A model generated the notes under the pieces. The model had not been told where the DNA came from. It was given only the letters and a program-made list of their open reading frames with translations, and ran no database searches. From an uncultured Anaerolineae bacterium (GTDB lineage: Bacteria > Chloroflexota > Anaerolineae > VGOG01), in assembly GCA_964510205.1 (NCBI GenBank), contig CAZEBW010000004.1:3638-67637 (forward strand): 64,000 bases of DNA. The letters are read 5' to 3'. The translations under genes and the position numbers were made by a program. This document shows, piece after piece, positions 11,726 through 26,070 of this stretch (positions are counted from its first letter, which is position 1; each line of letters starts with the position of its first letter).

Positions 11726-11840
11726 ACCCGGCTGATTGATTCTTAACCCCGATGCCATTCTCCACTGGGACGCCAGGCATGCTTTGTGCAAGGCGTGTCT
11801 GCTGCTGGTCTCGGTAGAGCGGTTGCGATGCCCCCACTTT

Positions 11841-13340
11841 TCATGGAAGCGGTGGCAGTAGTATCCTATTGATGGTTATGCCCCACTGGTCACTTCTTCG
11901 TTCAAGCCCTTCCATTAGTTGCTGGCATGCTGTGGCCTTGTTCGGCGGATCATGTACATCCTGTTGCCTGTATCCACATAACGCCTCATTCAGGAGCACG
12001 GCCATTTCCTGCACGATTTCTTTGTCCCAAATAGTCTTCATGTCGGCTTCGGTCAGTTTTTTCTTCTTGGTCTTCTTGTGGTTATTCTCACCAGATTCTC
12101 TAAAGAAGTGAGGTGCATGAACCGCTTTTTCCTTATTGACCTGGTAGTAAACTACTGGGGCAAGCTGCAAGACCCCATCTGCTAGTGCGACTTTCTGTTT
12201 GGGGCAACGGCATCTCAGCTCCATGGTCGGGATTACAGCTTGAATTTGGCTGTACAAGGGAAGCTGAAGAATACTTTGACCTTCTTCCAGCACCCTGATT
12301 TCGCGACTGTCTCCGATCACAGCAATCCTGTCGGGTGGGACGGTGAAGGTGAACGCCCTGTATCCAACGAGCACCAGAAGGACAAGCAAGAGTGGCAAGG
12401 CCGTACCCGCGGCAGTCAAGACAACGATGTGCAGTGAACTGCGCACGGAAAGCAGTATGCTCGCCAGCAGCATCAGTAGTACAATGACCACAAAGCCTGC
12501 CAACGCGCTGACAAAGGCGAGCACAGGGCTGGACAGTATTAGGTTGATGGCATCGCGAGCGTATGTGAGCAATGTCTCGAGTTGAATAGCAAGCGATGGT
12601 GGAGATTGCTCCGCCGCTCCGTCCTTCTCCTGCTCTGACGGCCTCATGCCTTGCGGACTGGCGTCTCCAGGTGGAAGGGATTCTTCGTCAATGTCCTCTG
12701 AGTTCATGGCTAGTCGTTCCGTCGTTTGCTCAGGCATACTCTCTTCACCCTCCTCTTGTTTTTGCTTCGCCTCTTGGCCTGACGGCTCCGTTTGTACGGG
12801 ACCAGCTCTTCCACGTCGAAGCGGTCCTCCGCCGGTATCTCCTGAATCCATGGCTACTTGTTGGTCTCGCAGGATCTTCCGGTATCGTGACTCGACTGTG
12901 CGCCTTAGGCGGCGGTCCATGTCCTGCAGCAGTTCCAGGCTGCGTGAACAGGCTTGACTTGCCTTGAGCCATTTGCCTTGGGCCTCGCACACCGTGGCCA
13001 ATCCAAAGAGGGCTACTGCTTGACTATGTTTGTCACTCAGAAAGAAGCGAGTGCTCTCTTGATACTTGTTGGCTGCCTCATCCAAGTGTTCCTGAGCGTG
13101 AAAGATAGCTGCGAGGTGAATAAGGGCTACCCCTTGAGCATATGAGTCATCCAACATGTCCAATTCGAGAGATCCTCTTGCTGATCTAATGCTTTGCTCA
13201 GCTATCGATTGGGCTGCTTTGTACCGGCCAGCTCGTCGCAGTTTGTCGGCCTCCTTGTTGAGCACGGTACCGCGATTAGTTCGTTCTCTTAGTTGGCGTA
13301 TGATCTGGTTGGCTTGTCGGTGGTAAGGATCGGATGTCAT
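11841..13340 (-). CDS. TPR-like / acidic linker / transmembrane / SPFH-like domain protein
   Basis: Likely start MTSDPYHRQ (rc ATG at 13338-13340). TPR-like helices, an E/D/Q-rich linker, two hydrophobic helices, then IAVIGDSREIRVLEEGQSILQLPLYSQIQAVIPTMELR...VVYYQVN resembling the start of an SPFH/band-7 domain. Confidence 0.5.
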   Translation of the reverse strand: MTSDPYHRQANQIIRQLRERTNRGTVLNKEADKLRRAGRYKAAQSIAEQSIRSARGSLELDMLDDSYAQGVALIHLAAIFHAQEHLDEAANKYQESTRFFLSDKHSQAVALFGLATVCEAQGKWLKASQACSRSLELLQDMDRRLRRTVESRYRKILRDQQVAMDSGDTGGGPLRRGRAGPVQTEPSGQEAKQKQEEGEESMPEQTTERLAMNSEDIDEESLPPGDASPQGMRPSEQEKDGAAEQSPPSLAIQLETLLTYARDAINLILSSPVLAFVSALAGFVVIVLLMLLASILLSVRSSLHIVVLTAAGTALPLLLVLLVLVGYRAFTFTVPPDRIAVIGDSREIRVLEEGQSILQLPLYSQIQAVIPTMELRCRCPKQKVALADGVLQLAPVVYYQVNKEKAVHAPHFFRESGENNHKKTKKKKLTEADMKTIWDKEIVQEMAVLLNEALCGYRQQDVHDPPNKATACQQLMEGLERRSDQWGITINRILLPPLP

Positions 13341-13419
13341 TGAAGTCCCCCCATAGAAGGAAAGCCCACCGGGATGCAGGAGAGTTGGGCCGGATAAACT
13401 AAGGTGTTCTGCGATATCG

Positions 13420-14727
13420 CTATGGGCTGCCAGGCGGCAATGCAATCGCTGATCTTATGGATTGCAGAGTGGCCATCACGTCGGAAGGCAGAAGGATCTT
13501 GGTCGCTGGATCGGAGGCCATTTTCTCCAGAGCTTCAATGAAACGCAAGGCTATGAATTGTGGAATCGGGATGTTCTTAGTCTCCATCTGACGGAAGCCT
13601 TCGGTGATGGCTATGATCATTCTAGTTTGAGCTTGTGCTCTGGCAACCTCAATCAGGTTATATACTTCAGCCTGTGCCTCGCCTTCAGTGATGAGGACTT
13701 GCTTGCGACTCTCCGCCATGCGCGCTTCCCAGTCTACTTGCCATTTCTTTTGCATTCCTTCCCTAATTTCCGGAGGCACCTCAATATTCAGCATCTGAAA
13801 GCTTATGATAGTGCCTCCCCAGCCTTCGGCTATCTTTCGCAGGGAATCTCGGACACGCTGCTTGATGTCGCTTTGAGGGAACGTGTTGGGATCCAGTGGG
13901 TCAAAGATATCATCCAAGTAACGTTTGCCAATCTCGTCGCGAAGCAGATTCTTGGCTACTTCGATAGTGGCGATTTCCCAGTCATAGCTATCGTAGGTAG
14001 CTTTGAGGACCGCCTCTCTAGAGAATGGATAGGGCTTCTCTGGGTTCCACACCTTGGCTGGATCCTGCGCGATGCGGAATAGAACGCTATAGTGGATGGT
14101 CACCGGTATGCCATCTTTGGTTGAGGCATTATCTAGCGTTCCTCTCCTGAACCGTTTCCGTGTGACGATGACCTTCCTGATACTTTCAAAAGGCTTGGTG
14201 CGCACTGCACCGGGCCCCTCAATGCGAGTGAATTTCCCCATCCGCTCGAAGACAACGGCTTGCTCGTTGCGTATTACGATCAAATTGGCTACCTTGAAGC
14301 CGGCGAGTGCGCCTTTGGACTTCACCTCGTCCACTTGGCCATCTTCAACGATGATGTAGCTTCCCAGGAATAGCTCTCCGGTGACAAAAGAGAGTAAATA
14401 CCGAAAGCAGTCCCACTGATTGCCGCCCCGGCTGACCAGTATGAGTTGCGAGGCCAGAAACAGGAGACTGCCTGTTAAGAATAGATAGACAGCCAGCCCC
14501 AATACTGCCCCCGTCAGGCCTCTCGTGACGAAGGAGAAGGTCAGAAACACCCCACTTGCAGTGAAGAATATCGCCAGCGCCACGCCCTTGCTCTGGCCCA
14601 TCCTGACAAGACACCCAAGGGAGACCACAGCGAGCCATACTAGGCCCCATTTGGGCTCGTGAACTACAGAGACTAAAATCAGTAGTGGAAGCAGGGCTAC
14701 GGACAACACAAGCAAGATCTTCTTCAT
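13420..14727 (-). CDS. SPFH/band-7 (stomatin/HflKC-like) domain membrane protein
   Basis: N-terminal 4-5 TM helices, then NEQAVVFERMGKFTRIEGPGAVRTKPFESIRKVIVTR...TKDGIPVTIHYSVLFRI (SPFH core) and a coiled-coil tail; start MKKILLVL. Confidence 0.7.
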   Translation of the reverse strand: MKKILLVLSVALLPLLILVSVVHEPKWGLVWLAVVSLGCLVRMGQSKGVALAIFFTASGVFLTFSFVTRGLTGAVLGLAVYLFLTGSLLFLASQLILVSRGGNQWDCFRYLLSFVTGELFLGSYIIVEDGQVDEVKSKGALAGFKVANLIVIRNEQAVVFERMGKFTRIEGPGAVRTKPFESIRKVIVTRKRFRRGTLDNASTKDGIPVTIHYSVLFRIAQDPAKVWNPEKPYPFSREAVLKATYDSYDWEIATIEVAKNLLRDEIGKRYLDDIFDPLDPNTFPQSDIKQRVRDSLRKIAEGWGGTIISFQMLNIEVPPEIREGMQKKWQVDWEARMAESRKQVLITEGEAQAEVYNLIEVARAQAQTRMIIAITEGFRQMETKNIPIPQFIALRFIEALEKMASDPATKILLPSDVMATLQSIRSAIALPPGSP

Positions 14728-14903
14728 AGCACAAGCTCTCCTTGTTTCTGTCAGCACTCTTAAGGTACGTGAGACTGCCGTCCAGTGCGTTCAACACGAG
14801 CTTATCTGACGGCGCCACAGGTATCACCCAGTTTCCATAGATCGAGGCAAAACCAAAAGGCCGCGGCTCGATATCGAAAACGTTTTGCAATGAGGGTGCT
14901 CAC

Positions 14904-16418
14904 TCAGCTCTGGGCGATCAAAATGGGGGAAGCCCAAGTCAAGTCATCCTTATTACGCATTGCCAGCTCTCGCCGGGCATCCAGCAGTGCCAGTTCAGGG
15001 CTGCCGTGCTGGAGCATAGAACGATAGAACGCCAGTGCCATTTCCTTGGCGCTCACTGCCGGCACTGACCACCTGTAGCCCAAAACAGACGGCACCCCTG
15101 ATTGGATAATTCCATCAGCGATACCCAGGTAGTCATCGTCCAGCAAATCAACCGGGCTGCCGGTACGAGTGCCCTCGCAGCACGTCAGGTGAAACAAACG
15201 GGTGTCAGAATCTTCCAACAGCCATCTCAGCTCATTTCCGGTCATTGGCTTTATATTCCCTGACCGGTTGCTGTCTTCCCAGAAGAACAATCTGCTCTGT
15301 TCCGGAGACCCCTCGTGAAAGACTCCGTGACCAACATAATGCACGATGTGATGCTTACACCCACGGAGCATTTCTTGCACTGCACTGTATGTAGCTGCTT
15401 CGGTTCTGACATGAGTCAAATCCAACCAGTTCAGTGGCGACAGCAAATCCACCAACTCTTCTCCGATTTTGTCAATCAGATCAATGCGTGGCTCAGTGTT
15501 GGACACGAGCAGTAGAACACGCAGGTTCTCGCCTGAACTGGCGAGACGTCGTATGAGTTCAGCAGAGATGGGTTCACGCCTCGTCACTACGCCTCGAATT
15601 TGGCGGACCATTGGATGGAGCAGTGTAAGGTAATCACCAGCCTCATCGGAAAAGATGAACTCCAGTGGCAATCCTGCCAGATCTCGGGTGGATTCAAACA
15701 CGAGGTGCAAGTATTGGTTCATTTGCGTCCTACCGAGTGCTCGGTGATACCCGTTGAGTACCGCAGAGTGCTGTTCGAACAGCAGGCGGTATAGCTCCCG
15801 TCCCACGTCTTTGATCAGAAAGCGGCGGTCTGCTGTGCTCATCATGCGTTCGCTTCCCCAGCGTGCAAAACGTGGAGCGTCGAGGCTTAGTGGATTGACA
15901 GAGGTGTATGTGAAGCGGATGTTGCCACGGCCCCGCACAAGAAGTCGCTGCCCTGGCTCTAGCGAGATTGTAATTTCGCACTCTTGGCTCGGCTCAAAGA
16001 CCGGCAATTGCCATTTCAATGACCTACTGATCACGCTATCCATCACTTTAACCACATCTTCTATCATGGTCTTTGGGAGGTACTCGGCTACAAGTCGCCG
16101 TCCAGTTGCATCAGGTTCCAGGGCGCGCCTCATCGTGTCAGGGGTACCATAGCCGGTGATAATGACAATCGGGAGCCCAGGGAATCGTCGTTTAAGCTCA
16201 GCAGCTAGATCAAGGCCTTCTAGGTTGCCTTCATCTGTCTCGTCCAAGCGCATGTCAAGTAGGGCTGCGTCGAAATGCTCTCGGTCAGACAAATCCAGGG
16301 CTCGCGCAACACTGGCAGCCGTTTTGGTTGCGTAGCCCTCGTCAATCAAGAGTTGTGAAAGGGTCACTCGCCAGTCAAACAAATCATCTACGATAAGCAC
16401 CTGGATTTGTTTAGTCAT
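14904..16418 (-). CDS. Response-regulator receiver fused to CHAT (caspase-like) protease domain
   Basis: REC: ILIVDDL...FDAALLDMRL...ITGYG...YLPKT. CHAT: IVHYVGHGVFH (catalytic His) and LFHLTCCEGT (catalytic Cys), C-terminus ALLDARRELAMRN...WASPILIAQS. Confidence 0.75.
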   Translation of the reverse strand: MTKQIQVLIVDDLFDWRVTLSQLLIDEGYATKTAASVARALDLSDREHFDAALLDMRLDETDEGNLEGLDLAAELKRRFPGLPIVIITGYGTPDTMRRALEPDATGRRLVAEYLPKTMIEDVVKVMDSVISRSLKWQLPVFEPSQECEITISLEPGQRLLVRGRGNIRFTYTSVNPLSLDAPRFARWGSERMMSTADRRFLIKDVGRELYRLLFEQHSAVLNGYHRALGRTQMNQYLHLVFESTRDLAGLPLEFIFSDEAGDYLTLLHPMVRQIRGVVTRREPISAELIRRLASSGENLRVLLLVSNTEPRIDLIDKIGEELVDLLSPLNWLDLTHVRTEAATYSAVQEMLRGCKHHIVHYVGHGVFHEGSPEQSRLFFWEDSNRSGNIKPMTGNELRWLLEDSDTRLFHLTCCEGTRTGSPVDLLDDDYLGIADGIIQSGVPSVLGYRWSVPAVSAKEMALAFYRSMLQHGSPELALLDARRELAMRNKDDLTWASPILIAQS

Positions 16419-17205
16419 GGCTGCTATCCGTGGGAGTTTCTATGGCTTTGATCACAGGGAGTGTGATCGCTATCGTCGTGCCGTGGCCAATCTCAGTATG
16501 TTTTACACTAATCTCTCCACCAAACCTGGCAAGTATCAAATGCGCTAACCAGAGACCCAGGCCCTTGTTGGTCCCGGTTGACGGAATCGGACCCTGAAAA
16601 AGATCGGCAAGAATGAGTTGCGGTATCCCTGTTCCGTTATCTGCAATCTCTACTCGCACTGTGTTGTCCGCGTCCACGTACTGGGTATGGATGTCAATAT
16701 GTCCGGGTTTTTTGCTTGTTGCTTGGATCGAGTTTTCGAGCACCGCCCGGAAAACCTCCGCGAGCAAGTGGCTATCAGCACGCACGGGAGGGACATCCTC
16801 TGGAAAATCAAAACTCACCCGTACTGTCTTGGAAGTGTGGCTAGCAGAAAGTTCTTCCCAGACCTCATACAGCAGTGAGTTTACGTCTAAGGGCATAGGC
16901 GGCTCACTCGGCTCTCTGAGTACTTCGACGGCGGCACTTAATTCGCTCAAACTGCTAATGGTCTTTTCTATGGCTGTGACCAGGTCGAGGGCGGCTCTAT
17001 CGTTGCTATTGATGTATTCCTTAAGACGACCGACTCGAACTCCCAGCAACCCAGTCAAGTTGGAGAGCTGGTGCAGTAATGCAGCAGAAGCCATCCCCAG
17101 TGCAATGAGGCTGGCCTCCTCCCCGTGGCTACGGTTAGGATGTGCACTTTCTTGCGGTAGGGGTGGATTTGGTCTCTGACTTTCCCGGTCATTTGGTGGA
17201 CTCAT
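16411..17205 (-). CDS. Cytoplasmic sensor histidine kinase (DHp + HATPase_c, no TM or sensor domain)
   Basis: H-box AALLHQLSNLTGLL; N, G1 (ADNGTGIP) and G2 (GLGLWLAHLI) boxes. Confidence 0.75.
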   Translation of the reverse strand: MSPPNDRESQRPNPPLPQESAHPNRSHGEEASLIALGMASAALLHQLSNLTGLLGVRVGRLKEYINSNDRAALDLVTAIEKTISSLSELSAAVEVLREPSEPPMPLDVNSLLYEVWEELSASHTSKTVRVSFDFPEDVPPVRADSHLLAEVFRAVLENSIQATSKKPGHIDIHTQYVDADNTVRVEIADNGTGIPQLILADLFQGPIPSTGTNKGLGLWLAHLILARFGGEISVKHTEIGHGTTIAITLPVIKAIETPTDSSHD

Positions 17206-17241
17206 TTGTCGGATTCTCCCAAGCGCGGCGCGTCCTTCAGT

Positions 17242-18768
17242 TCACTCCTGATGAATCAAGATAGGCGACAACCAGGTTGGATCGTTTCTGTCCATAGCGG
17301 CCAGCTCGCGCCTTGCGCTCCAGAGGGCGAACTCCGGCCCCCCTTGCTCCAATAAGGACTGGTAGAAAGCCAACGCCAGCCGACGGGCTCCATCATCTGA
17401 CACAGGCCAGCGGAAGCCCAGCACCGAGGGTGCGCCGGCCTGCGCGACAGCGTCGGCCAGCCCAAGGAAATCGTCATCCAGCAAAGCAGCCTGAGCGCCG
17501 CTGGCTGTGCCATAGCAACTGCTCATGTACACCAGACGTGCTTCCGAGCGCCTGAGTAGCATCTTTAGTTCGGTTGCTTTCATCGGCATGACGCCACCTT
17601 GCTTATTCTCCTGGGCCCAGAAGTATAGGCTGCTATCTTCAGGGGACTCGGTCCTGTACGAGCCATGTCCTGCGTAATGTACAATGTCGTAACTGGGCTT
17701 CCCCAACTCTGATCTTACGCGCTCATACGTGGCGCGCTCCGTGGGGATGAGTTTAACACTGACAGGGATGCAGTCCTGGCTCTTTAAGTACTCGTACAGT
17801 GCCTGCGCCTCGGCATCTACGCCGTCTATTGGAGGCTGTGTGTTAGAGGCGATAATCAGAATTCGCAATTCCTGAGTCAGTGCCAGCAGCGAAGGGGAAA
17901 TCAGGCTGCGTTTCGGGGTAGCATTGTATAGAAAACGGGCGAGGGGGTGTTGAAGTACCAGGTACTCTGGAGGATCATCCGAGCGCATAAATTCCAATGG
18001 TAGTCTGAGAAATTCCCTGGGCGTCTCAAAAAGCATTGAAAACGACTGGCTCTTGGCGCGCGCTTCCACATAGGCTTTTTCGGCTTCAGGGTGCTCAGTA
18101 AATATGTCACGCCACAGACTGTGGCCGATCTCCCCAACCTGGAAACGCAAATTGCTCACGTCTCTTCTGGCGAGTTCTGTCCGCCTTGCATAGCGTTCGA
18201 GTGCCACACGCAACACTTTCCACGAGCGCAAGGAACAGACGTGGCGACCGCGCGCCCTGATCACCAGAGGCTGTCCGGCTGTGAGTGATAGAGATAGCTG
18301 GGTAGCATCACCTGTCTTCTCAAACCTCGGCTTGGTTGCCTCCTGGCGTGCTTTCGCGATAGTCTCCAGAACTTGTTCAGCCACATCCGGGGTTTTTTCG
18401 ATGAAGTCAACTACTCCGAGATATCGAATCGCGCGTACAATTTGCTTGGTTCTCGGGTAGCGTGTGAGCAGGATGACGCGAACCCGCGGATTGAGGGCGC
18501 GGAATGCCATCGCCAGGCTCAATCCGCTTTCGTCCTCTTCATCATCTCCGTGCAGGCGCACGTCAATGAGAGCAAAGTCGAACGGTTCTTGCGTGACAGC
18601 AACCAGGGCTTGTTCCTCGTTGGCCGCTGACCGGACGGTGTATCCTTCATCGGAAAGTCGCCCTGCTAACGTGGTACAGAAATCGGCATGGTCATCTACT
18701 ATCAGAATCTTGCACATTGCTACCCTCTTCATCAACTGTCTGATGGGACGCTCCGGGTCATCCAGCAT
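17242..18768 (-). CDS. Response-regulator receiver fused to CHAT protease domain (second copy)
   Basis: REC: KILIVDDHADF...FDFALIDVRL...LTRYP...IEKT. CHAT His IVHYAGHGSY and Cys LVYMSSCYGT; start may be the internal M (MCKILIV). Confidence 0.75.
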   Translation of the reverse strand: MLDDPERPIRQLMKRVAMCKILIVDDHADFCTTLAGRLSDEGYTVRSAANEEQALVAVTQEPFDFALIDVRLHGDDEEDESGLSLAMAFRALNPRVRVILLTRYPRTKQIVRAIRYLGVVDFIEKTPDVAEQVLETIAKARQEATKPRFEKTGDATQLSLSLTAGQPLVIRARGRHVCSLRSWKVLRVALERYARRTELARRDVSNLRFQVGEIGHSLWRDIFTEHPEAEKAYVEARAKSQSFSMLFETPREFLRLPLEFMRSDDPPEYLVLQHPLARFLYNATPKRSLISPSLLALTQELRILIIASNTQPPIDGVDAEAQALYEYLKSQDCIPVSVKLIPTERATYERVRSELGKPSYDIVHYAGHGSYRTESPEDSSLYFWAQENKQGGVMPMKATELKMLLRRSEARLVYMSSCYGTASGAQAALLDDDFLGLADAVAQAGAPSVLGFRWPVSDDGARRLALAFYQSLLEQGGPEFALWSARRELAAMDRNDPTWLSPILIHQE

Positions 18769-19639
18769 TCCCCCAATTTGCCTGTATGTAACTCGTTGTC
18801 GCCTTTACGTCCAGGCTGCGAGTCGAATTGCCAATACGCACCCAGAACTTGTGAACATCGCCCGTCGCCAGGAACACCGGCTTTGGGCTTTTTTCAATCG
18901 CAACGATGCAGACGTGTTTACCATCTATGGGTTCGAAGCGTGTGCGAATGTATGGCATATATTCTAGACCCACATAGGTCTTGACAATATCCGTCAATGC
19001 CAATTGAAACCCATCGGTATTTGGCTTGCGCAGAGTTTGTAAGTCTTTTTCAATACCTAGCACCGTGCCATCGTCAGCGACGCCAATGAGTAGGGTCCCA
19101 CCCTTGCTGTTCAACATTCCTGTGATTGCCACGGCGATCGTTTCCTGCAGGCTCTTGTTAGTTGTGTTTTTCTTGAAATCCCAGCGGATACTGGACTTGA
19201 ATTCCACGTGGTCATTTTCACCTTGGGCAATCAAATTGAGTACCGAGCGTTCAAATGCGCGGTTCACGTACTCCGGCAGTTGGTCTACTTCAGATTTTTC
19301 CAGGAAGCCAAACGCTGGTGATACTCCCTCGCGATCAGGTTGAAGGACCTCCCTCACCATCCTGACGTTTGCATAGCCGGTCAAGATAATGATGGCCACA
19401 TGGGGGTCCTTCTCTCTGATCTCGCGCATAAGCAAGATGCCATCTTGGTTGTCCTCGTCGGCCTCGTCCAAGCGCACGTCCAGAACTGCGACGTGAAAAC
19501 GCTCGGCGTCCAACATTTGCAGAGCCTCAACTCTGCTGGATGCCGAGCGTACTTCATAGCCTTCGTCTGACAAAAGGCCCGACAATGTTGCGCACACGTC
19601 GGGCAGGTCATCTACTACGAGAACGCGACCTTTGTACAT
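18758..19639 (-). CDS. Response-regulator receiver fused to an AlbA_2 (Schlafen-like) domain
   Basis: Likely start MYKGRVLVVDD. REC with VAVLDVRL; C-terminal ENDHVEFKSSIRWDFKKN...TLLIGVADDGTVLGIEKD matches the AlbA_2/Schlafen N-domain signature. Confidence 0.65.
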   Translation of the reverse strand: MYKGRVLVVDDLPDVCATLSGLLSDEGYEVRSASSRVEALQMLDAERFHVAVLDVRLDEADEDNQDGILLMREIREKDPHVAIIILTGYANVRMVREVLQPDREGVSPAFGFLEKSEVDQLPEYVNRAFERSVLNLIAQGENDHVEFKSSIRWDFKKNTTNKSLQETIAVAITGMLNSKGGTLLIGVADDGTVLGIEKDLQTLRKPNTDGFQLALTDIVKTYVGLEYMPYIRTRFEPIDGKHVCIVAIEKSPKPVFLATGDVHKFWVRIGNSTRSLDVKATTSYIQANWGNAG

Positions 19640-19665
19640 GGCACTCCTGCCGATTGCATCTTGTC

Positions 19666-20067
19666 TTATCGTGCCAACACTTCCTGTACTATCTTGACCA
19701 ACTCTTCGGTCTGGGTTTTCGGGATATAGTTCGCTACAAGTCTCCGGCCCTGCGTATCTGGCTCCATTGCCCGTCTCATGGTATCCGGCGTGCCGTAGCC
19801 TGTGATCATTACGACTTCGGTAGTGGGCCAATGTTGTTTGATCTCATCCGCCAGGTCCAGCCCCTCGGTGTTACTCTCGTCCGTCTCGTCCAGGCGCATG
19901 TCCAGTACTGCCAGATCAAAATGGCTGGTTTTGAGCAACTCCAATGCCGCAGGCGAAGACTCGGCAACCTGGACATCGTATCCCGCGTCCTCCAACAAGC
20001 CACCGAGCGTCGTGCGCCAATCTAGCAGGTCATCTACCACCAGAATCTTCTGCCGTTTGTTTGTCAT
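19666..20067 (-). CDS. Single-domain CheY-like response regulator (paralog of the REC of the 14904 REC-CHAT)
   Basis: ILVVDDL...FDLAVLDMRLDETDESNTEGLDLADEIK...ITGYGTPDTMRRAMEPD...YIPKT, almost identical to the REC of 14904-16418. Confidence 0.8.
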   Translation of the reverse strand: MTNKRQKILVVDDLLDWRTTLGGLLEDAGYDVQVAESSPAALELLKTSHFDLAVLDMRLDETDESNTEGLDLADEIKQHWPTTEVVMITGYGTPDTMRRAMEPDTQGRRLVANYIPKTQTEELVKIVQEVLAR

Positions 20068-20459
20068 TCTCTTACTCCTTCGTGCTTACCATGGCGATTA
20101 CGCGGCACCTGTGGAAACAGAATGATCTCCCTGACCTGCTCGAAGAGATCCTCGCTTCCGAAAGACTTGGCGAAGTAGCGCATGGCTCCCAACCGGTAGG
20201 CCGCAAGCGCCTCTTGGGTCGTGGGTTGTACTGTTGTTACGACCACCCGCTTATCAGAGTATTTCTCAGCGATGACTGCAAGCACGTCCAGGCGGCGGGA
20301 GCTTGCGATGACCAGGTCGAACTGATCCGCTTCGAGTTCAGCGAGTGCTGCCTTGGTGTCAGGCGCAACGACGATTTCAAACTTGTTGAGATCGCTCTTG
20401 GCGAACTCAATCCAGCGAGGTTCGTCGTCAATGATCAGAATGCGAGTTTTCATGATCAC
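20064..20459 (-). CDS. Atypical receiver-like protein (pseudo-receiver; phospho-acceptor Asp apparently replaced)
   Basis: ILIIDDEP present, but the expected D in FDLVI-A-SSRRL is Ala. Confidence 0.55.
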   Translation of the reverse strand: MIMKTRILIIDDEPRWIEFAKSDLNKFEIVVAPDTKAALAELEADQFDLVIASSRRLDVLAVIAEKYSDKRVVVTTVQPTTQEALAAYRLGAMRYFAKSFGSEDLFEQVREIILFPQVPRNRHGKHEGVRE

Positions 20460-23400
20460 ACCTCCTTTCCCGTCCCCGGCGCTGGGATCTGAACCAGCAT
20501 TGTTGTTCCAGTGGGATCGGTCTCTTCTATTATAGCATCACCGCCAATACTTTGCAACATCAGTCGGCTGAGCCAGAGACCCAGACCTGCCCCTCCGCCT
20601 GGCTCCTTGGATGGGACTGGTTTGACGAAGAGACGTTGCTGGACTTGCAGTGGGATGCCCGGTCCTGTATCCTGAACCCGCACACAGATATTACTGTCGG
20701 TCAGACGACTGGTAACTGCTAACTGGCCACCCGCCTTCATTGCTCGGTAGGCATTGTCAACCAAGTTGTAGAAGACCTCAGCGATCTGACCGATCGGGGC
20801 CCGAATCTGCGGCAGCGATTGATCCAGGTCTAGGGTATGTTCGATCGTTGATCGAATGGGATCCGTTCGCCACTGTTCTCTCACTTTACCCACCACGTCA
20901 CTCAGCACTGCGTTAATGTCCACATCCTGATCCTCGACCTCTCGCAGCGGTTCTTGAATGCGCGCGATGATATCCGACGTATAGCGGGCGTTACGTTCGA
21001 TGATGTCAAGGATCTCTGCAATCGTATCATTCGACATATCAACGCGCTTCCGCAGGCGCGTCACGTTGGGAACGATGATGTTGAAGGTATTATTGACACG
21101 ATGTTGTAAAGCTGCGATGGCCGTGCCCAGTGTGGCCAAGCGCTTGGTCGCGATGACTTCACTGCGTGCCTCCTCATATAACCGGGCATTCTCAAGGGCA
21201 ATGGCTGCCTGGTTGGCCATAGAGGAGATGACCTGCAAGTCCTGTTCATCGTAGGCCTGCTCTCTTTCCCAGTCGTAGATAGCGATCACGCCCAGAACCC
21301 TATTCTCCAGAACCATCGGGACACCTATCCAAGATTTGGCGACACGCCCGATGAACTCTTGATGTCCGGGCTGTCCATACCACGCTTTAGATTCCACTTG
21401 GGTGCGATGCAGGATTGGCTTCTTGGTAAGGATGACTTCTTCGGTCTTACCCCGCTTCTCCATATCAGCCTTGCGGGGATCGTAATGCACCTGCTCACCG
21501 TGCTCCGTTGCCAGACCGAAGCGGATCATCCCTGTTTCCTCGTCATACAGCGCGATGTACATGTCCTGTGCGCCGGTCAACTCCCTGGCCTGCTCGTAGA
21601 TTAGCTCCAGAATCTCATCTTGCTTCAGACGAATACCGGAGGTTAGTGCCTGTCCTACCTCATTCAGTGCCGCCAACGCCTGAACGCGCCGTGCGAGCTG
21701 CTGGTTGATCTCGTAGTAAAGCGTTGCATTATCCAACGCGATTGCCGCTTGGTTGGCCACAGAGGAGATGACCTGCAAGTCCTGTTCATCGTAGGCCTGC
21801 TCTCTTTCCCAGTCATAAATGGCGATCATACCCAGTACCTTCTCACCTGTGACCATGGGAACGCCCAAGTAAGAAGGCTGAACACGCCCGATGAACTCTT
21901 GATGTCCGGGCTGTCCATACCACGCTTTAGATTCCACTTGGGTGCGATGCAGGATTGGCTTCTTGGTAAGGATGACTTCTTCGGTCTTACCCCGCTTCTC
22001 CATATCAGCCTTGCGGGGATCGTAATGCACCTGCTCACCGTGCTCCGTTGCCAGACCGAAGCGGATCATCCCTGTTTCCTCGTCATACAGCGCGATGTAC
22101 ATGTCCTGTGCGCCGGTCAACTCCCTGGCCTGCTCGTAGATTAGCTCCAGAATCTCATCTTGCTTCAGACGAATACCGGAGGTTAGTGTCTGTCCCACCT
22201 CGTTCACTGCCTGTATAGCTTTATACAAGCGTGCGCTTTTAATAGCAACCGCTGCTGCCCCAGCTAGGGCCTCAACCAGACGCATGTGATCGTCTGTAAA
22301 GGCTCCGATTTGGGTACTCTCCAGATTGAGCGTTCCAATCACTCTGTCACGGTGTATCAACGGTGTTGTGAGTTCGGATTGTACTTCCTCAAACCACTCC
22401 TTGTAGTACGGATCGCTTTTGATATCGTTGCAAAGATATGTCTTTCTACTCAAGGCAACGTGTCCGTTGATGCTCGTCTCGTCTAGGGGTAGTCTCGTGA
22501 GGGTTCGCGTCGGCGTCTCATCCCTCTTGTTTCTCGCCCCAAATCGCAGTTCACGTGTCCGCTCGTCCAGCAACCAAATACTCGTATACTTGGCTGGCGT
22601 CAGCCTGGCCGCTTGCTCTGCGATTTGCTCCAGCAGATCCTCTAGGGAAGCAGTGCCAATGAGCGCGTATAGGTTCTGAAGAGCTCTGATATCATCAATT
22701 CGCTCTTGTAGGCTAGTCTGAGCCTCTTCGTACACACGGGCGTTATAGATAGCTGTCGCCGCTTGATTAGCGAACAGCTCGATAGCCCCCCGTTGCTCAG
22801 GAGTGAAGGGTTGTCGGCTCCGGTAATTGACGAACATAGCGCCCACGGTTTCGCCTGCTGCTTCGAGGGGGACGGCGGCTGACGATAGGATTCCCTCGCG
22901 CACTACAAAGCGCTTTTCCGGGCGCTCAGGGCGCTCTACGGTGAATGGGCCGGTGAGCAGGGTATCCGTCTGAGTATCGGGAGAGTAGAGGGGCTCTCCA
23001 CCCTCGACCACTTTCACAACGACATCATCCTTGAATATTTCGTCCTTGACAACTGTGGGGTCTCGGCGCTCTCCTTCCAAGATAGGTGGCATGATGTAAC
23101 GGTCATCCGCCTCAACGTACTGGTACACATCCACGAGATCGGCACCCAATACACTCCTGGCACTTCGCGCCACCTGACGCAATACCTCTCTCAACCCCTG
23201 TGCCGAAAGCTCAGCCGAGAGTATTCGTCCCCCAATCTGGTGCAGCCTCTGCAAGACTGCAGCCCGGCTGGTTGCCTGCTCAAGAAGTTGAGCATTGTGT
23301 ACAGCCACGGCGGACTGGCTGGCCACCGCCTCTAACAGCATCTGATCGTGCTCGTCAAAGCCGCTCAGCCCGTCCATATCAGCAGAGATCACCCCAATAA

Positions 23401-24193
23401 CCTCGTCTTGCAAGATTATGGGCGCCAGCACCATTGAGCGCTCGACGATGTCTGACGACAAACCGGGGACAAACTGAGGGTGCTTGACCGCATCCGGGAC
23501 GAGTTCTGATTGCTTGGTTTGGGCTACCCACCCGGCCAACCCGACCCCTTGGGCGAACTGCTGTCGTGCGATGCCTGCTGACGAGGCAGCTTCCAACGCT
23601 AGGTCACCGCTCTTATCCACTAGAAAAACGCTGATGTGCTTGCAATCCAGCACTCTTTCTGCGGCTTGCATAATGCGTGCGAAAAGATCGGCACGGCGCA
23701 ATTCGGAACTGATCAAGAGGCTCACTGCGTTCAGGGTCGCCAGATCCTGAATTCGACGCTGCGTGGCAGCCACTTGAGCGGAAGAACTCTCAATCAGCGC
23801 CTTCTCGAAATCAGTGAAATCCCTTGCCTCACGGGTATAAACGTCAAGCACACCAACGATTTTCCTTTTTACTCGTAGTGGTACCACCATAGCCGACTTC
23901 AGTCCCATAGCGGTGGTTTCTGGTTTGTACTTCCAGCGAGCATCGGTGTCAACGTCTGTCACGACGATTGCCTGTTCAGTCGCAAAAACGTCAGACGCGA
24001 CACTGGGCTCATCCAGGCGCAGAAACGCATCGCGAACGTATTCCTCTGACAACTCTGTCGCTGCAGCGATCCGGAGGGTTTCCCCCGTTTCATCGGCAAG
24101 CCAGATACAGGCCGGCAGTCCCAGAGTCTGGCTTATGGTCTCCACCACGGGTTGAAAGAACTGCTTTTTATCAAGTTCTTGAGAGGGGATCAT
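20456..24193 (-). CDS. Large cytoplasmic multi-GAF-domain sensor histidine kinase (1245 aa)
   Basis: At least 5-6 GAF-like modules, coiled coil, H-box ALQHRVNN, HATPase_c (DTGPGIP...GLGLWLSR); no TM helices. Confidence 0.8.
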   Translation of the reverse strand: MIPSQELDKKQFFQPVVETISQTLGLPACIWLADETGETLRIAAATELSEEYVRDAFLRLDEPSVASDVFATEQAIVVTDVDTDARWKYKPETTAMGLKSAMVVPLRVKRKIVGVLDVYTREARDFTDFEKALIESSSAQVAATQRRIQDLATLNAVSLLISSELRRADLFARIMQAAERVLDCKHISVFLVDKSGDLALEAASSAGIARQQFAQGVGLAGWVAQTKQSELVPDAVKHPQFVPGLSSDIVERSMVLAPIILQDEVIGVISADMDGLSGFDEHDQMLLEAVASQSAVAVHNAQLLEQATSRAAVLQRLHQIGGRILSAELSAQGLREVLRQVARSARSVLGADLVDVYQYVEADDRYIMPPILEGERRDPTVVKDEIFKDDVVVKVVEGGEPLYSPDTQTDTLLTGPFTVERPERPEKRFVVREGILSSAAVPLEAAGETVGAMFVNYRSRQPFTPEQRGAIELFANQAATAIYNARVYEEAQTSLQERIDDIRALQNLYALIGTASLEDLLEQIAEQAARLTPAKYTSIWLLDERTRELRFGARNKRDETPTRTLTRLPLDETSINGHVALSRKTYLCNDIKSDPYYKEWFEEVQSELTTPLIHRDRVIGTLNLESTQIGAFTDDHMRLVEALAGAAAVAIKSARLYKAIQAVNEVGQTLTSGIRLKQDEILELIYEQARELTGAQDMYIALYDEETGMIRFGLATEHGEQVHYDPRKADMEKRGKTEEVILTKKPILHRTQVESKAWYGQPGHQEFIGRVQPSYLGVPMVTGEKVLGMIAIYDWEREQAYDEQDLQVISSVANQAAIALDNATLYYEINQQLARRVQALAALNEVGQALTSGIRLKQDEILELIYEQARELTGAQDMYIALYDEETGMIRFGLATEHGEQVHYDPRKADMEKRGKTEEVILTKKPILHRTQVESKAWYGQPGHQEFIGRVAKSWIGVPMVLENRVLGVIAIYDWEREQAYDEQDLQVISSMANQAAIALENARLYEEARSEVIATKRLATLGTAIAALQHRVNNTFNIIVPNVTRLRKRVDMSNDTIAEILDIIERNARYTSDIIARIQEPLREVEDQDVDINAVLSDVVGKVREQWRTDPIRSTIEHTLDLDQSLPQIRAPIGQIAEVFYNLVDNAYRAMKAGGQLAVTSRLTDSNICVRVQDTGPGIPLQVQQRLFVKPVPSKEPGGGAGLGLWLSRLMLQSIGGDAIIEETDPTGTTMLVQIPAPGTGKEV
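21209..22290. repeat. 540-bp tandem duplication (2 copies) of one GAF module inside the histidine kinase gene, with a ~320-nt 100% identical core
   Basis: 21343-21662 equals 21883-22202 at nucleotide level (the + strand ORFs 21359-21604 and 21749-22144 translate identically); flanks ~75-85% identical. Confidence 0.75.
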
Positions 24194-24228
24194 GGGTCAC
24201 TCTCCTTGTCATCTGTAAATGGGCAGAT

Positions 24229-25569
24229 TCAATTATGAGGTTGGTGTCTCCAGACTTCCAATGACTCCCTATATCCCGCTTCCGAAAATGCTAACCCCTT
24301 CTCCCTCAGCATCATAGCGGTGAGAAGGTGAGGTAATCCTTTCTTCTTTTCCAGGAAGACGATTTGTGGGCCGGAAAGCGTACGCCTACCATTCTTCTTC
24401 AGGAATTGCATGAGCTGGCGACGTCCGCGCTCAACGGTCTTTAAGAAACGCTGTGCCTCGGTTGAGAAATAGGATTCCAGTTTCTCCTCGTCCTCCGGCG
24501 CCGCTCGCGAAGCGTTGCGCACTGTTTGGGAAATGCAATCTATCAGTGTGGGTAGAAACCCCCTGGTTTCGATGCCCAGAACAATCTGCCGCGTTACGAC
24601 ACCTCGAATCAATAGCTTAATGAGACGCTCTCGCCCATTCTTACCTGGAGGTGGAGCGCCATCTGCGACTAGGAAATACAGCGCCTTTAGATAATCTGCC
24701 ATCACATGTTCGCTGGCAGTGATCAACGATTCTGGCAGGTCAGGTGCGCGAACGAGACTATGTATGGTGTCTGTGATCGGTTGGTAACTACTTATCTCAA
24801 ACACTGATTGAGCATCTTGCAGGATCATTGCCACGCGCTCAGTGCCAATCACCGTTTCGAAGAAAGGCTCCGTCATCGGTTGGAGCCTTTGGGTCTTAGT
24901 GTCTATCTCGGTGCTGACAAAGAGTGAATTGGCGAATTCAACGAACCGACCGCACTGGCAAGGCGGCCGACAATCGGGGCCGCAGCCAAAGACCGCGCCT
25001 CGATCAAAGAACATCTCAGTATTGGGCCCGCATTTACGATAGCGAACTACCCCTTCAATGCCATTTCCTTGTTTCCAGAGGTTGTCCTTGACTCCCAGAC
25101 CTATGATCTGCTCTTCAGGCATCCCGATACTCCGCCAAGCTTGATGAGCCTCTACATCCTCGTCAAACGCATGCTTTGAAATCTTACCCCCGGCGAAATA
25201 AGTGACCCATATGTTGTCTGGCTTGATTCTCAGGTTTGAGGTCATGAACTCCCACATTTGCTGGATAACAGTTGCCTTGCTGAGAGCATTAAAGGAAAAA
25301 GCGGCGGGCATTTCAAACAAGCTTAGGTGCACATTGTCGGTTCCAACGGTGTCAATGTCGAAATATCTGAAGCACTTTTGCACCAGTGCATACTTATGCC
25401 CGGCACGCTTGCCCATCTGATCAAGAGCCTTTTCAAATTGCGGTAATCCAGCACTCATTACGAACGACATAGGAATAGAGGGATGCAACAGCGAGGCACT
25501 AGGCAGAACGGAGAATCCTTTGCCCTGGTAATAATCGAGGAACGTTTGGCTAATGGCTGGGGATCGCAT
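24229..25569 (-). CDS. Alanyl-tRNA synthetase catalytic-fragment paralog (AlaRS N-terminal ~441-aa-like, divergent)
   Basis: SQTFLDYYQGKGFSVLPSASLL...QFEK...VQKCFRYFDIDTVG...HLSLFEMPAAFSF...GKNGRERLIKLLIRG is collinear with the AlaRS N-terminus (FLDFF..GH..VPS..LLFTNAGM..QKCIR..D.VG..HHTFFEML.NFSFGDYFK..GNEGRGYVLRRIIRR). No editing or C-Ala domains; several canonical motif residues are changed. Confidence 0.6.
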   Translation of the reverse strand: MRSPAISQTFLDYYQGKGFSVLPSASLLHPSIPMSFVMSAGLPQFEKALDQMGKRAGHKYALVQKCFRYFDIDTVGTDNVHLSLFEMPAAFSFNALSKATVIQQMWEFMTSNLRIKPDNIWVTYFAGGKISKHAFDEDVEAHQAWRSIGMPEEQIIGLGVKDNLWKQGNGIEGVVRYRKCGPNTEMFFDRGAVFGCGPDCRPPCQCGRFVEFANSLFVSTEIDTKTQRLQPMTEPFFETVIGTERVAMILQDAQSVFEISSYQPITDTIHSLVRAPDLPESLITASEHVMADYLKALYFLVADGAPPPGKNGRERLIKLLIRGVVTRQIVLGIETRGFLPTLIDCISQTVRNASRAAPEDEEKLESYFSTEAQRFLKTVERGRRQLMQFLKKNGRRTLSGPQIVFLEKKKGLPHLLTAMMLREKGLAFSEAGYRESLEVWRHQPHN

Positions 25570-25620
25570 TTTCTAGCTCCAAATCACGCGATACACCGAA
25601 CGTTATTGTAGATGCATGAA

Positions 25621-25649
25621 TATTATATCAAACCTGTCCTTAAATGTCA
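25621..25649 (-). promoter_or_regulatory. Perfect sigma70 consensus promoter (TTGACA-17-TATAAT on the minus strand) driving the AlaRS-like / HK / REC / CHAT operon
   Basis: Reverse complement reads ttgacatttaaggacaggtttgatataat; ~45-nt leader with ggag RBS before the ATG at 25569. Confidence 0.55.
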
Positions 25650-25704
25650 AGGCATCCAAAATACTGGATAGACATACACCGTATCGTTCAAGGAGTTGGG
25701 GTAA

Positions 25705-26070
25705 TCACACATTCGGGTGATGGCACTTCTTCCCAGTCGAAAATATCTCTAGCGAAGGGGCATCATATCGAGGCCCTCCTTCGAAGTCCCTAACGAACCG
25801 GTAAAACTCGTCAATGAAGCTGACTAATTCATCAGTATGCTCACTGATCGCCTTGACATCAGGGGAGATGTTCTCCTTGAGTTCCCTCTTGAACTTTTCA
25901 TCCTTCTCCTCAAGAGCAGCCCAATCCCAAGCCCCGTCAAGGTACTTGCGAATCTCCCCTAGCACATGATCTCGTGCGAGTGTGAGATCAGATGGGCAAT
26001 CTTTTGCCTTTAATCTACGATAATCTAATTCCATTTCCCTGCAAAGGGCTGGCGCATGGTCTCTGTCCAT
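25705..26070 (-). CDS. Hypothetical protein (possible C-terminal part of a frameshifted lipoprotein)
   Basis: 121-aa ORF, no domain; low-GC. Confidence 0.3.
   Translation of the reverse strand: MDRDHAPALCREMELDYRRLKAKDCPSDLTLARDHVLGEIRKYLDGAWDWAALEEKDEKFKRELKENISPDVKAISEHTDELVSFIDEFYRFVRDFEGGPRYDAPSLEIFSTGKKCHHPNV

Follow-up and report, generated by a model that had tools for sequence, protein, structure and literature searches.

A response regulator with a Schlafen-type AlbA_2 output domain in a two-component cassette of an uncultured Anaerolineae bacterium

The receiver-AlbA_2 gene and its product

The window analyzed here is a 64,000-nucleotide stretch of DNA from an uncultured Anaerolineae bacterium (contig CAZEBW010000004.1 of assembly GCA_964510205.1, positions 3,638 to 67,637 of the forward strand), and all positions below are numbered from its first letter. 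The subject is a minus-strand gene for a protein of 293 amino acids, termed REC-AlbA_2, in which a two-component receiver domain (REC) is followed by a Schlafen-type AlbA_2 domain. The open reading frame runs from an ATG at 19639-19637 to a TGA at 18760-18758, with AGGAG 4 nt 5′ of the ATG, and the product is identical to the 293-residue REC-AlbA_2 protein (P0001) present in NCBI and Logan assemblies. The gene and its parts are as follows.

18758..19639, minus strand: REC-AlbA_2 (Schlafen-type) response regulator gene, 293 amino acids (open reading frame and translation, Pfam)
19292..19639, minus strand: receiver domain, residues 1-116 (Pfam, family alignment, CheY alignment)
19480-19478, minus strand: phospho-acceptor D54 (alignment with CheY)
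19223..19297, minus strand: predicted long alpha5/linker helix, residues 115-139 (full-length AlphaFold2 model)
18812..19219, minus strand: SLFN_AlbA_2 domain, residues 141-276, a single lobe corresponding to the active-site C-lobe of mammalian Schlafens
19196..19219, minus strand: predicted catalytic motif E141-NDHV-E146-F-K148 (Ex4ExK; sequence and SLFN13 alignment)
19073..19075, minus strand: D189, counterpart of the catalytic D248 in rat SLFN13 (profile alignment)

A first-pass annotation, made by a model from the sequence without database searches, had described a receiver fused to an AlbA_2/Schlafen-like domain, and this description is confirmed by a real open reading frame and by two Pfam domains above their cut-offs: Response_reg (PF00072) at residues 6-102 (E 6.8e-19; 68.5 bits vs a cut-off of 30.2) and SLFN_AlbA_2 (PF04326) at residues 141-276 (E 1.7e-18; 67.7 bits vs 25.3; profile positions 1-117 of 118). 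The annotation had named residues ~140-294 as the region to search, and it is there that the second domain was found, together with the signature that it had quoted, G-E141-NDHV-E146-F-K148-SS ... GGTLLIGVA-D189-D190-G. A different fold, which it had named as the outcome that would tell against it, was not seen, the predicted C-terminal model matching AlbA_2/Schlafen-fold entries of the PDB. It is very probable that the protein consists of a receiver and a catalytically intact Schlafen-type domain. A chance motif match was rejected, given Pfam E-values of 1e-18 and unambiguous fold searches. Pfam found only REC and AlbA_2 in the protein, with no HTH, wHTH or LytTR output; NCBIfam matches (NtrX, AtoC, FixJ and similar) were confined to the receiver and far below cut-offs, and a full-length single-sequence search of the PDB returned receiver matches only.

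In alignment with CheY, residues D10/D11, D54, T87 and K115 of REC-AlbA_2 match D12/D13, D57, T87 and K109. Among 17 orthologues each of these positions is invariant or at least 90% conserved, and 11 distant REC-AlbA_2 representatives keep all of them too. The receiver therefore looks like a functional phospho-acceptor, and phosphotransfer to D54 is predicted. The other receivers encoded in the same operon are 36-39% identical to that of REC-AlbA_2, which carries an acidic insert, RLDEADEDN, after beta3. Four of the five operon receivers (19666-20067, 18758-19639, 17242-18768 and 14904-16418) have an RLDExDExN-like acidic insert at this place, with the full pattern D-x-R-L-D/H-E/G-x-D-E-x-N/D, plus a PDxxG insertion before beta5. 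Neither insert is found in CheY, and as sequence patterns the two mark a cassette-specific receiver subfamily.

The fold of the C-terminal half is well defined by prediction. Modeled from 91 homologues, residues 127-293 reach a predicted local distance difference test score (pLDDT) of 95.1 and a predicted template modelling score (pTM) of 0.90, and the top 29 matches of a Foldseek search against the PDB are all AlbA_2/Schlafen-fold entries; the matches include DIP2311 (3lmm), SLFN5/11/12/13/14, the DNA-binding/tRNase domain of SAMD9, and 2kyy. A single-sequence PDB search with the C-terminal half gave marginal Schlafen matches (E 0.06-0.5) in a register that misplaces the first Glu. The family profile settles this register, placing E141, E146, K148 and D189 at E205, E210, K212 and D248 of rat SLFN13 (chain numbering +13), and there is a five-residue family-specific insertion after EFKS relative to rat SLFN13. 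The protein has a single AlbA_2 unit, which aligns with the C-lobe region of SLFN11/13, and lacks the two-lobe horseshoe of the mammalian core.

The catalytic triad of SLFN13 is E205, E210 and D248, and its E205A and E210A variants are inactive (PMC5862951), while the motif Ex4(E/D)xK is the signature of 5,930 prokaryotic Schlafens (PMC13056530), to which E141-x4-E146-F-K148 of REC-AlbA_2 conforms. Conservation of this site extends well beyond the close relatives. E141, E146, K148 and D189 are invariant or at least 90% conserved among the 17 orthologues; the family alignment of 91 sequences shows no variation at E146 and K148 and at least 90% conservation at E141 and D189; and in 83 multidomain relatives E..x4..E.K is invariant and D189 at least 90% conserved. 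The catalytic set is also retained in 10 of the 11 distant REC-AlbA_2 representatives.

One relative, P0123 (296 amino acids, 49% identical), is without E146, K148 and D189 (VAFLSG ... GVGKNG) and keeps the acceptor residues of the receiver. Judged from these substitutions it is probably an inactivated copy; by the same residues, the window protein is not degenerate in this way.

The cassette and its exchangeable output slot

The setting is a CHAT operon, as the first-pass annotation had said, with flanking REC-CHAT genes at 17242-18768 and 14904-16418. A Pfam scan covered ten cassette and adjacent proteins; the features around REC-AlbA_2 are listed in the order of transcription.

25622..25650, minus strand: candidate promoter, TTGACA-17-TATAAT, TG-extended, 12/12 (consensus scan, pattern match only)
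24229..25569, minus strand: paralogue of alanyl-tRNA synthetase (AlaRS-like), 446 amino acids, first cassette gene (Pfam tRNA-synt_2c; NCBIfam below cut-off)
20456..24193, minus strand: six-GAF histidine kinase with HATPase_c, 1245 amino acids, candidate H-box ALQH1031RVNN (Pfam; H-box by eye)
20064..20459, minus strand: pseudo-receiver, 131 amino acids, Ser at the acceptor position (Pfam; CheY alignment)
19666..20067, minus strand: stand-alone receiver, 133 amino acids, acceptor intact (Pfam; CheY alignment)
17242..18768, minus strand: REC-CHAT caspase-like protease, 508 amino acids (ATG 18768) or 491 amino acids (ATG 18717) (Pfam)
16411..17205, minus strand: second histidine kinase, sensor-less, 264 amino acids, candidate H-box ALLH45QLSN (Pfam HATPase_c; NCBIfam AtoS-like)
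14904..16418, minus strand: second REC-CHAT protease, 504 amino acids (Pfam)
13420..14757, minus strand: membrane-anchored SPFH/Band_7 protein with an N-terminal transmembrane segment (Pfam; transmembrane prediction)
11841..13445, minus strand: TPR protein with one predicted transmembrane segment, last gene of the low-GC block (Pfam; GC profile)

The upstream neighbor of REC-AlbA_2 is the 133-residue stand-alone receiver, which ends 27 nt before the ATG. The annotation had the start of the gene overlapping the end of a preceding REC-CHAT gene, and this is reversed: on the minus strand it is the stop of REC-AlbA_2 that overlaps, by 11 nt, the downstream REC-CHAT gene at its annotated start (ATG 18768). 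Even this overlap is uncertain, because homologous REC-CHAT proteins start at the position equal to ATG 18717, their N-termini beginning MxKILIVDD. This alternative ATG has a GAGGG-like Shine-Dalgarno sequence 5′ of it and would leave a spacer of ~40 nt, as in the related loci L003 and L004.

The AlaRS-like paralogue is truncated to the aminoacylation and tRNA-recognition half. Its motifs differ from those of genuine AlaRS (DTGMGLER is replaced by ETVIGTER and WNLVFMQ by ANSLFVS, and four amino acids are deleted in motif 2), and it belongs to a large uniform family of ~446 residues. The gene is kept in 9 out of 12 related loci, among them those of the TCAD9 variant described below. The sigma-70 consensus lies ~50 nt upstream of its start and, as a pattern, is a candidate for the single promoter of the cassette.

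Both histidine kinases are soluble, the six-GAF kinase having no predicted transmembrane segment, and in both a candidate non-canonical H-box of the form A-L-(L/Q)-H-x-(L/V)-(S/N)-N (H45 and H1031) was spotted by eye. The pseudo-receiver retains the DD pair, Thr and Lys. The contexts of the His/Cys dyad are kept in both proteases, as HYAGHG and SSCYG in the 508-residue protein and as HYVGHG and LTCCEG in the 504-residue one. SPFH genes adjoin the cassette in L003, L004 and L081. No MoxR-vWA pair, iSTAND or VMAP core was found among the ten proteins scanned by Pfam, and membership in the MoxR-vWA ternary systems was rejected in the absence of these core components.

The GC content is 0.50-0.55 across the cassette (~11800-26000) and 0.58-0.65 in both flanks, where the genes are housekeeping genes. 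For 12 flanking proteins, no homologue was found next to the cassette in any of 13 related loci, whereas the core order AlaRS-like / GAF-histidine kinase / REC / REC / REC-X / REC-CHAT is conserved. From the lower GC and the lack of shared flanking synteny it follows that the cassette behaves as a movable, self-contained unit, and it is possibly mobile. No integrase or transposase was seen in the annotated stretch (~6.9-33.7 kb).

The position occupied by REC-AlbA_2 accepts other output domains. In L007 (10396-11997), L008 (10402-11979) and L024 (1286-2887), REC-TCAD9 replaces REC-AlbA_2 at the same operon slot: the receivers are 67-72% identical to that of REC-AlbA_2 up to ~residue 133, after which these proteins of ~530 residues continue into a TCAD9 (PF19974) APH/kinase-like domain of ~400 residues. 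Identity to the TCAD9-type orthologues ends at residues 131-136, which places the junction at ~residue 133, and by these alignments the loci represent a clean swap of the output domain. In L011 and L013 the match is to the receiver only (51-59% identical) and is followed by a gap of similar length, the output domains falling outside the scan; the contig of L006 stops ~420 nt past the receiver match. A further representative, P0124, is a REC-TCAD9-EAD8 protein.

More distant relatives are found in comparable company. A relative with 39% identity directly follows a REC-TIR gene (L091, 6174-8247) in an operon that also holds GAF/PAS-histidine kinase, REC and REC-GAF-histidine kinase genes, and one with 35% identity is part of a single polypeptide, CHAT-TRADD_N-REC-AlbA_2 (L088, 8001-9797), encoded last in an equivalent kinase/receiver operon. 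As a Rosetta-stone fusion, it argues for a shared pathway of CHAT and REC-AlbA_2. As far as their domain assignments tell, the alternatives in the slot are domains of death or immunity type: the Pfam names TCAD9, EAD8 and TRADD-N match the terminology of studies of conflict and apoptosis-like systems (PMC7159879, PMC8195603), "TCAD9" itself being absent from the main text of PMC7159879.

The C-terminal half, used as a query, gave ~25 clusters of REC-AlbA_2 proteins (282-293 residues, 53-88% identity), and every full-length genome match came from metagenome-assembled genomes of Chloroflexota/Anaerolineae. The names found in public sources are uninformative. At 40-48% identity there follows a large clade of proteins of ~265-275 residues in which two predicted transmembrane helices precede the same AlbA_2 module; more distant REC-AlbA_2 proteins (33-39% identity) include longer forms such as REC-REC-AlbA_2. 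Members of the two-helix clade (P0046, P0051 and ~80 further clusters; L085-L087) share the linker LIAQGE with the AlbA_2 module, and in Methylobacter such a gene lies between ubiD and an HD-GYP gene, with no defence island there.

An exhaustive search of 1.84 billion representatives gave 406 matches at E <= 1e-30, most of them proteins of 200-1,176 residues with the AlbA_2 module at the extreme C-terminus. In a Pfam census of 83 of these multidomain relatives, the N-terminal partners were SBP_bac_3, bPH_2, GmrSD_N/DUF262, ORC-CDC6-like and AAA_16 ATPases (STAND-like), further receivers, WD40 propellers, pentapeptide repeats, Lon, caspase and HEAT. A catalytic module that stays constant while its partner varies so widely marks a portable effector, in agreement with the view taken of prokaryotic Schlafens (PMC13056530). 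A phage origin was rejected, there being one match among 2.9 million viral contigs.

Proposed mechanism and alternative explanations

REC-AlbA_2 is best explained, with a probability of about 0.6, as a phosphorylation-switched response regulator that has as its output a metal-dependent endoribonuclease with one Schlafen/AlbA_2 lobe. The first-pass annotation had likewise suggested a phosphorylation-controlled effector, a reading supported at the level of sequence by the domain identities, the intact acceptor and catalytic residues and the kinases in the operon. In the proposed course of events, the soluble six-GAF kinase would sense an intracellular cue, and phosphoryl groups would pass to D54 of REC-AlbA_2 and to the receivers of the two CHAT proteases; the second kinase, the pseudo-receiver and the stand-alone receiver may also take part. 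Phosphorylation would alter the alpha4-beta5-alpha5 face and the long alpha5 linker helix predicted at residues 115-139, leading to dimerization or oligomerization, or to release of the nuclease domain. Two single lobes could then form the RNA-binding cleft for which mammalian Schlafens use two lobes per chain, and RNA would be cut at the site formed by E141, E146, K148 and D189.

By analogy, the substrate is most likely tRNA, because the characterized enzymes with this active site (SLFN11/12/13/14, SAMD9, RorSlfn5 and CbCash) all cut tRNA or rRNA (PMC5862951, PMC13056530, PMC13462974). Precedents also exist for the switch: prokaryotic Schlafens cleave tRNA once the fused sensor is activated (PMC13056530); CbCash, a 33-kDa protein made of a Schlafen and a Rossmann-like sensor, works through dimers and filaments; and SLFN11 is gated by phosphorylation and dimerization (PMC13462974). 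In the cell, one signal would cause both translation shut-down and proteolysis, resulting in growth arrest or death in filamentous Chloroflexota, with infection or severe stress as the trigger. The biological role is the least certain step, and a role in conflict or cell death is favored because of the domain company and the cassette-like behavior.

Several observations weigh against this proposal. Pfam detects no HisKA domain in either kinase, and the H-boxes were assigned by eye. The linker is only moderately confident in the full-length model, with pLDDT values of 56-69 around residues 131-160. AlbA_2 domains can also do no more than bind nucleic acid, the first structure of the SAMD9 domain being that of a DNA-binding domain (7ksp). 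Wide conservation of the cassette across Anaerolineae lineages fits a physiological or developmental regulator too. Finally, the window is not a recognizable defence island: its flanks are housekeeping, and PADLOC gives no system, the weak matches to SduA, PDC-M60 and BovA reflecting receiver or CHAT domains only.

Were AlbA_2 a non-catalytic, nucleic-acid-binding output, phosphorylation would let the protein control the cassette or other genes, either as a transcription factor or as an RNA-binding regulator. Most response regulators are indeed DNA-binding, AlbA_2 has long been annotated as putatively DNA-binding, and JGI labels relatives as "predicted HTH transcriptional regulator" or "FixJ family response regulator"; the SAMD9 domain was crystallized with DNA in 7ksp, and P0123 persists despite the loss of E146, K148 and D189. 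However, a more recent structure (9o0d) presents the SAMD9 domain as a tRNase, the sibling receiver proteins of the cassette all bear enzymes, and Pfam finds no HTH or other DNA-binding domain. The catalytic set, moreover, is invariant or nearly so over hundreds of relatives, which binding alone would not demand, and a binding-only output is therefore unlikely. A DNA-binding transcription factor in particular was rejected on the absence of an HTH and the conservation of the catalytic set. An active nuclease directed at DNA, or at phage DNA, instead of tRNA or rRNA is slightly less probable still: Schlafen folds do bind DNA as well (SLFN5 as a "DNA/RNA binding protein", SAMD9 with DNA, SLFN11 on single-stranded DNA), and GmrSD_N, a partner within the subfamily, is a DNA-restriction module, but the Schlafen-fold nucleases characterized so far all cut RNA (PMC5862951, PMC13056530, PMC13462974).

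A more serious alternative, though a tentative one, accepts the phosphorylation-controlled RNase and gives it a physiological task. The GAF kinase would read a metabolic signal, trimming of tRNA or rRNA would lead to dormancy or filament differentiation, the CHAT proteins would be developmental proteases like cyanobacterial HetF, and the AlaRS-like protein would provide a link between the cassette and tRNA metabolism. The cassette proteins are 50-80% identical across several Anaerolineae lineages, the conserved first gene is an AlaRS paralogue, the 504-residue REC-CHAT protein has a weak NCBIfam match to the HetF family, the surroundings are housekeeping with no known defence system nearby, the gene of the two-helix sister clade in Methylobacter also lies among housekeeping genes, and 30.4% of prokaryotic Schlafen genes are not defence-associated (PMC13056530). 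Against such a task, the partners exchanged at or beside the receiver slot (TIR, TRADD-N, CHAT and TCAD9/EAD8) have been tied to conflict and cell death by comparative genomics (PMC7159879, PMC8195603), and the AlbA_2 module is also fused to GmrSD_N/DUF262, an architecture shown to be anti-phage (PMC13056530). The low GC of the cassette and its lack of flanking synteny with the 13 related loci likewise point to a movable unit.

Taken further, the role in conflict or cell death might belong to an undescribed system of immunity or programmed death built on two-component signaling, in which one cytoplasmic multi-GAF kinase arms several receiver-fused death effectors at once; this extension is speculative. 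The second kinase, the pseudo-receiver and the single-domain receiver would be relay or threshold elements, and the effectors would be the CHAT proteases together with the exchangeable slot, which would hold a Schlafen RNase in this cassette and holds TCAD9 in related Anaerolineae cassettes. For the tRNase, the AlaRS-like paralogue might be a tRNA-linked sensor, a decoy or an antidote.

Schlafen nucleases were reportedly recognized only in 2025-2026 as an immune effector family common to bacteria and humans, and the characterized prokaryotic members are, to our knowledge, all switched by direct binding of a ligand or protein to the fused sensor. If the phospho-switched endoribonuclease proposed here is correct, the same effector would also be under the control of a histidine-aspartate phosphorelay, which would parallel, in prokaryotes, the gating of human SLFN11 by phosphorylation, and an endoribonuclease would join the list of response-regulator outputs. 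At the level of the operon, the cassette would connect classical two-component signaling in filamentous bacteria with caspase-like proteases and with TIR and kinase-like effectors. For experiments it is a compact and tractable system, with defined kinases, a defined acceptor Asp and predicted catalytic residues whose mutation should have a foreseeable effect.

Comparison with known systems

The closest likeness is to the prokaryotic Schlafens RorSlfn5 and EcoSlfn7 (Perez Taboada et al., Nat Microbiol 2026, PMC13056530), which have the same Pfam domain with Ex4(E/D)xK and Asp and follow the same logic of a nuclease module fused to a variable sensor. In EcoSlfn7 (DUF262-Slfn) the nuclease is C-terminal, as in REC-AlbA_2, and the AlbA_2 subfamily of the window protein includes GmrSD_N/DUF262 fusions. 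The input differs: in those proteins a phage protein binds the sensor directly, whereas that of REC-AlbA_2 would be a kinase-derived phosphoryl group. The setting differs as well, since 69.6% of prokaryotic Schlafens co-localize with defence genes (PMC13056530) and REC-AlbA_2 sits in a multi-effector operon outside a recognizable defence island. The main text of that study never mentions a receiver, a response regulator or two-component signaling; the REC-AlbA_2 fusion may be catalogued, uncommented, among its 55 architectures.

CbCash (CRISPR-associated Schlafen + Csx15; Nat Commun 2026, PMC13462974) is of similar size (~290 residues) and likewise combines a single Schlafen lobe with a small alpha/beta dimerizing domain that receives the signal. 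It cleaves tRNA, its activity arising through an oligomeric rearrangement after a small signal. Its domain order is reversed, its signal is cyclic tetra-adenylate (cA4) from type III CRISPR, and it undergoes a dodecamer-to-filament transition, whereas the input of REC-AlbA_2 would be aspartyl phosphorylation. The mammalian proteins SLFN11/12/13/14 have two AlbA_2-like lobes per chain, a linker and a helicase, compared with the one lobe of REC-AlbA_2, and mammalian Schlafens and SAMD9 are only 15-20% identical to it in sequence; the Ser/Thr phosphorylation of SLFN11 is mechanistically unrelated to that of a receiver Asp. In the COG2865-type proteins (DIP2311, 3lmm), AlbA_2 stands at the N-terminus, ahead of a minimal histidine-kinase-like ATPase (HATPase_c_4) and a wHTH, neither of which occurs in REC-AlbA_2.

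Among response regulators, those with enzymatic outputs include CheB, PleD, RpfG and PorX, and ANTAR-type RNA-directed regulators bind RNA and do not cut it. REC-AlbA_2 resembles the enzymatic group in its full acceptor set, in the predicted helical linker to the catalytic domain and in the presence of kinases in the operon. PorX is mentioned in PMC12839542. A literature search found no response regulator with a Schlafen/AlbA_2 or other endoribonuclease output, and no kinase-driven cassette of receiver-fused CHAT, TIR or Schlafen effectors.

With the conflict and apoptosis-like systems of multicellular bacteria (Kaur, Burroughs, Iyer and Aravind; eLife 2020, PMC7159879; 2021, PMC8195603) the REC-AlbA_2 cassette and its relatives share CHAT/caspase, TIR, TRADD-N, TCAD9 and EAD8 domains, and the host of the cassette is also of a filamentous lineage. 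Schlafen is not mentioned in the text of either paper. The MoxR-vWA, STAND or GTPase core of those systems is absent from the REC-AlbA_2 cassette, and their receivers occur independently of histidine kinases, whereas two kinases are integral here. The effector family of REC-AlbA_2 is thus a known one; what is new is the input logic, that of His-Asp phosphotransfer, and the multi-effector operon in which the effector is placed.

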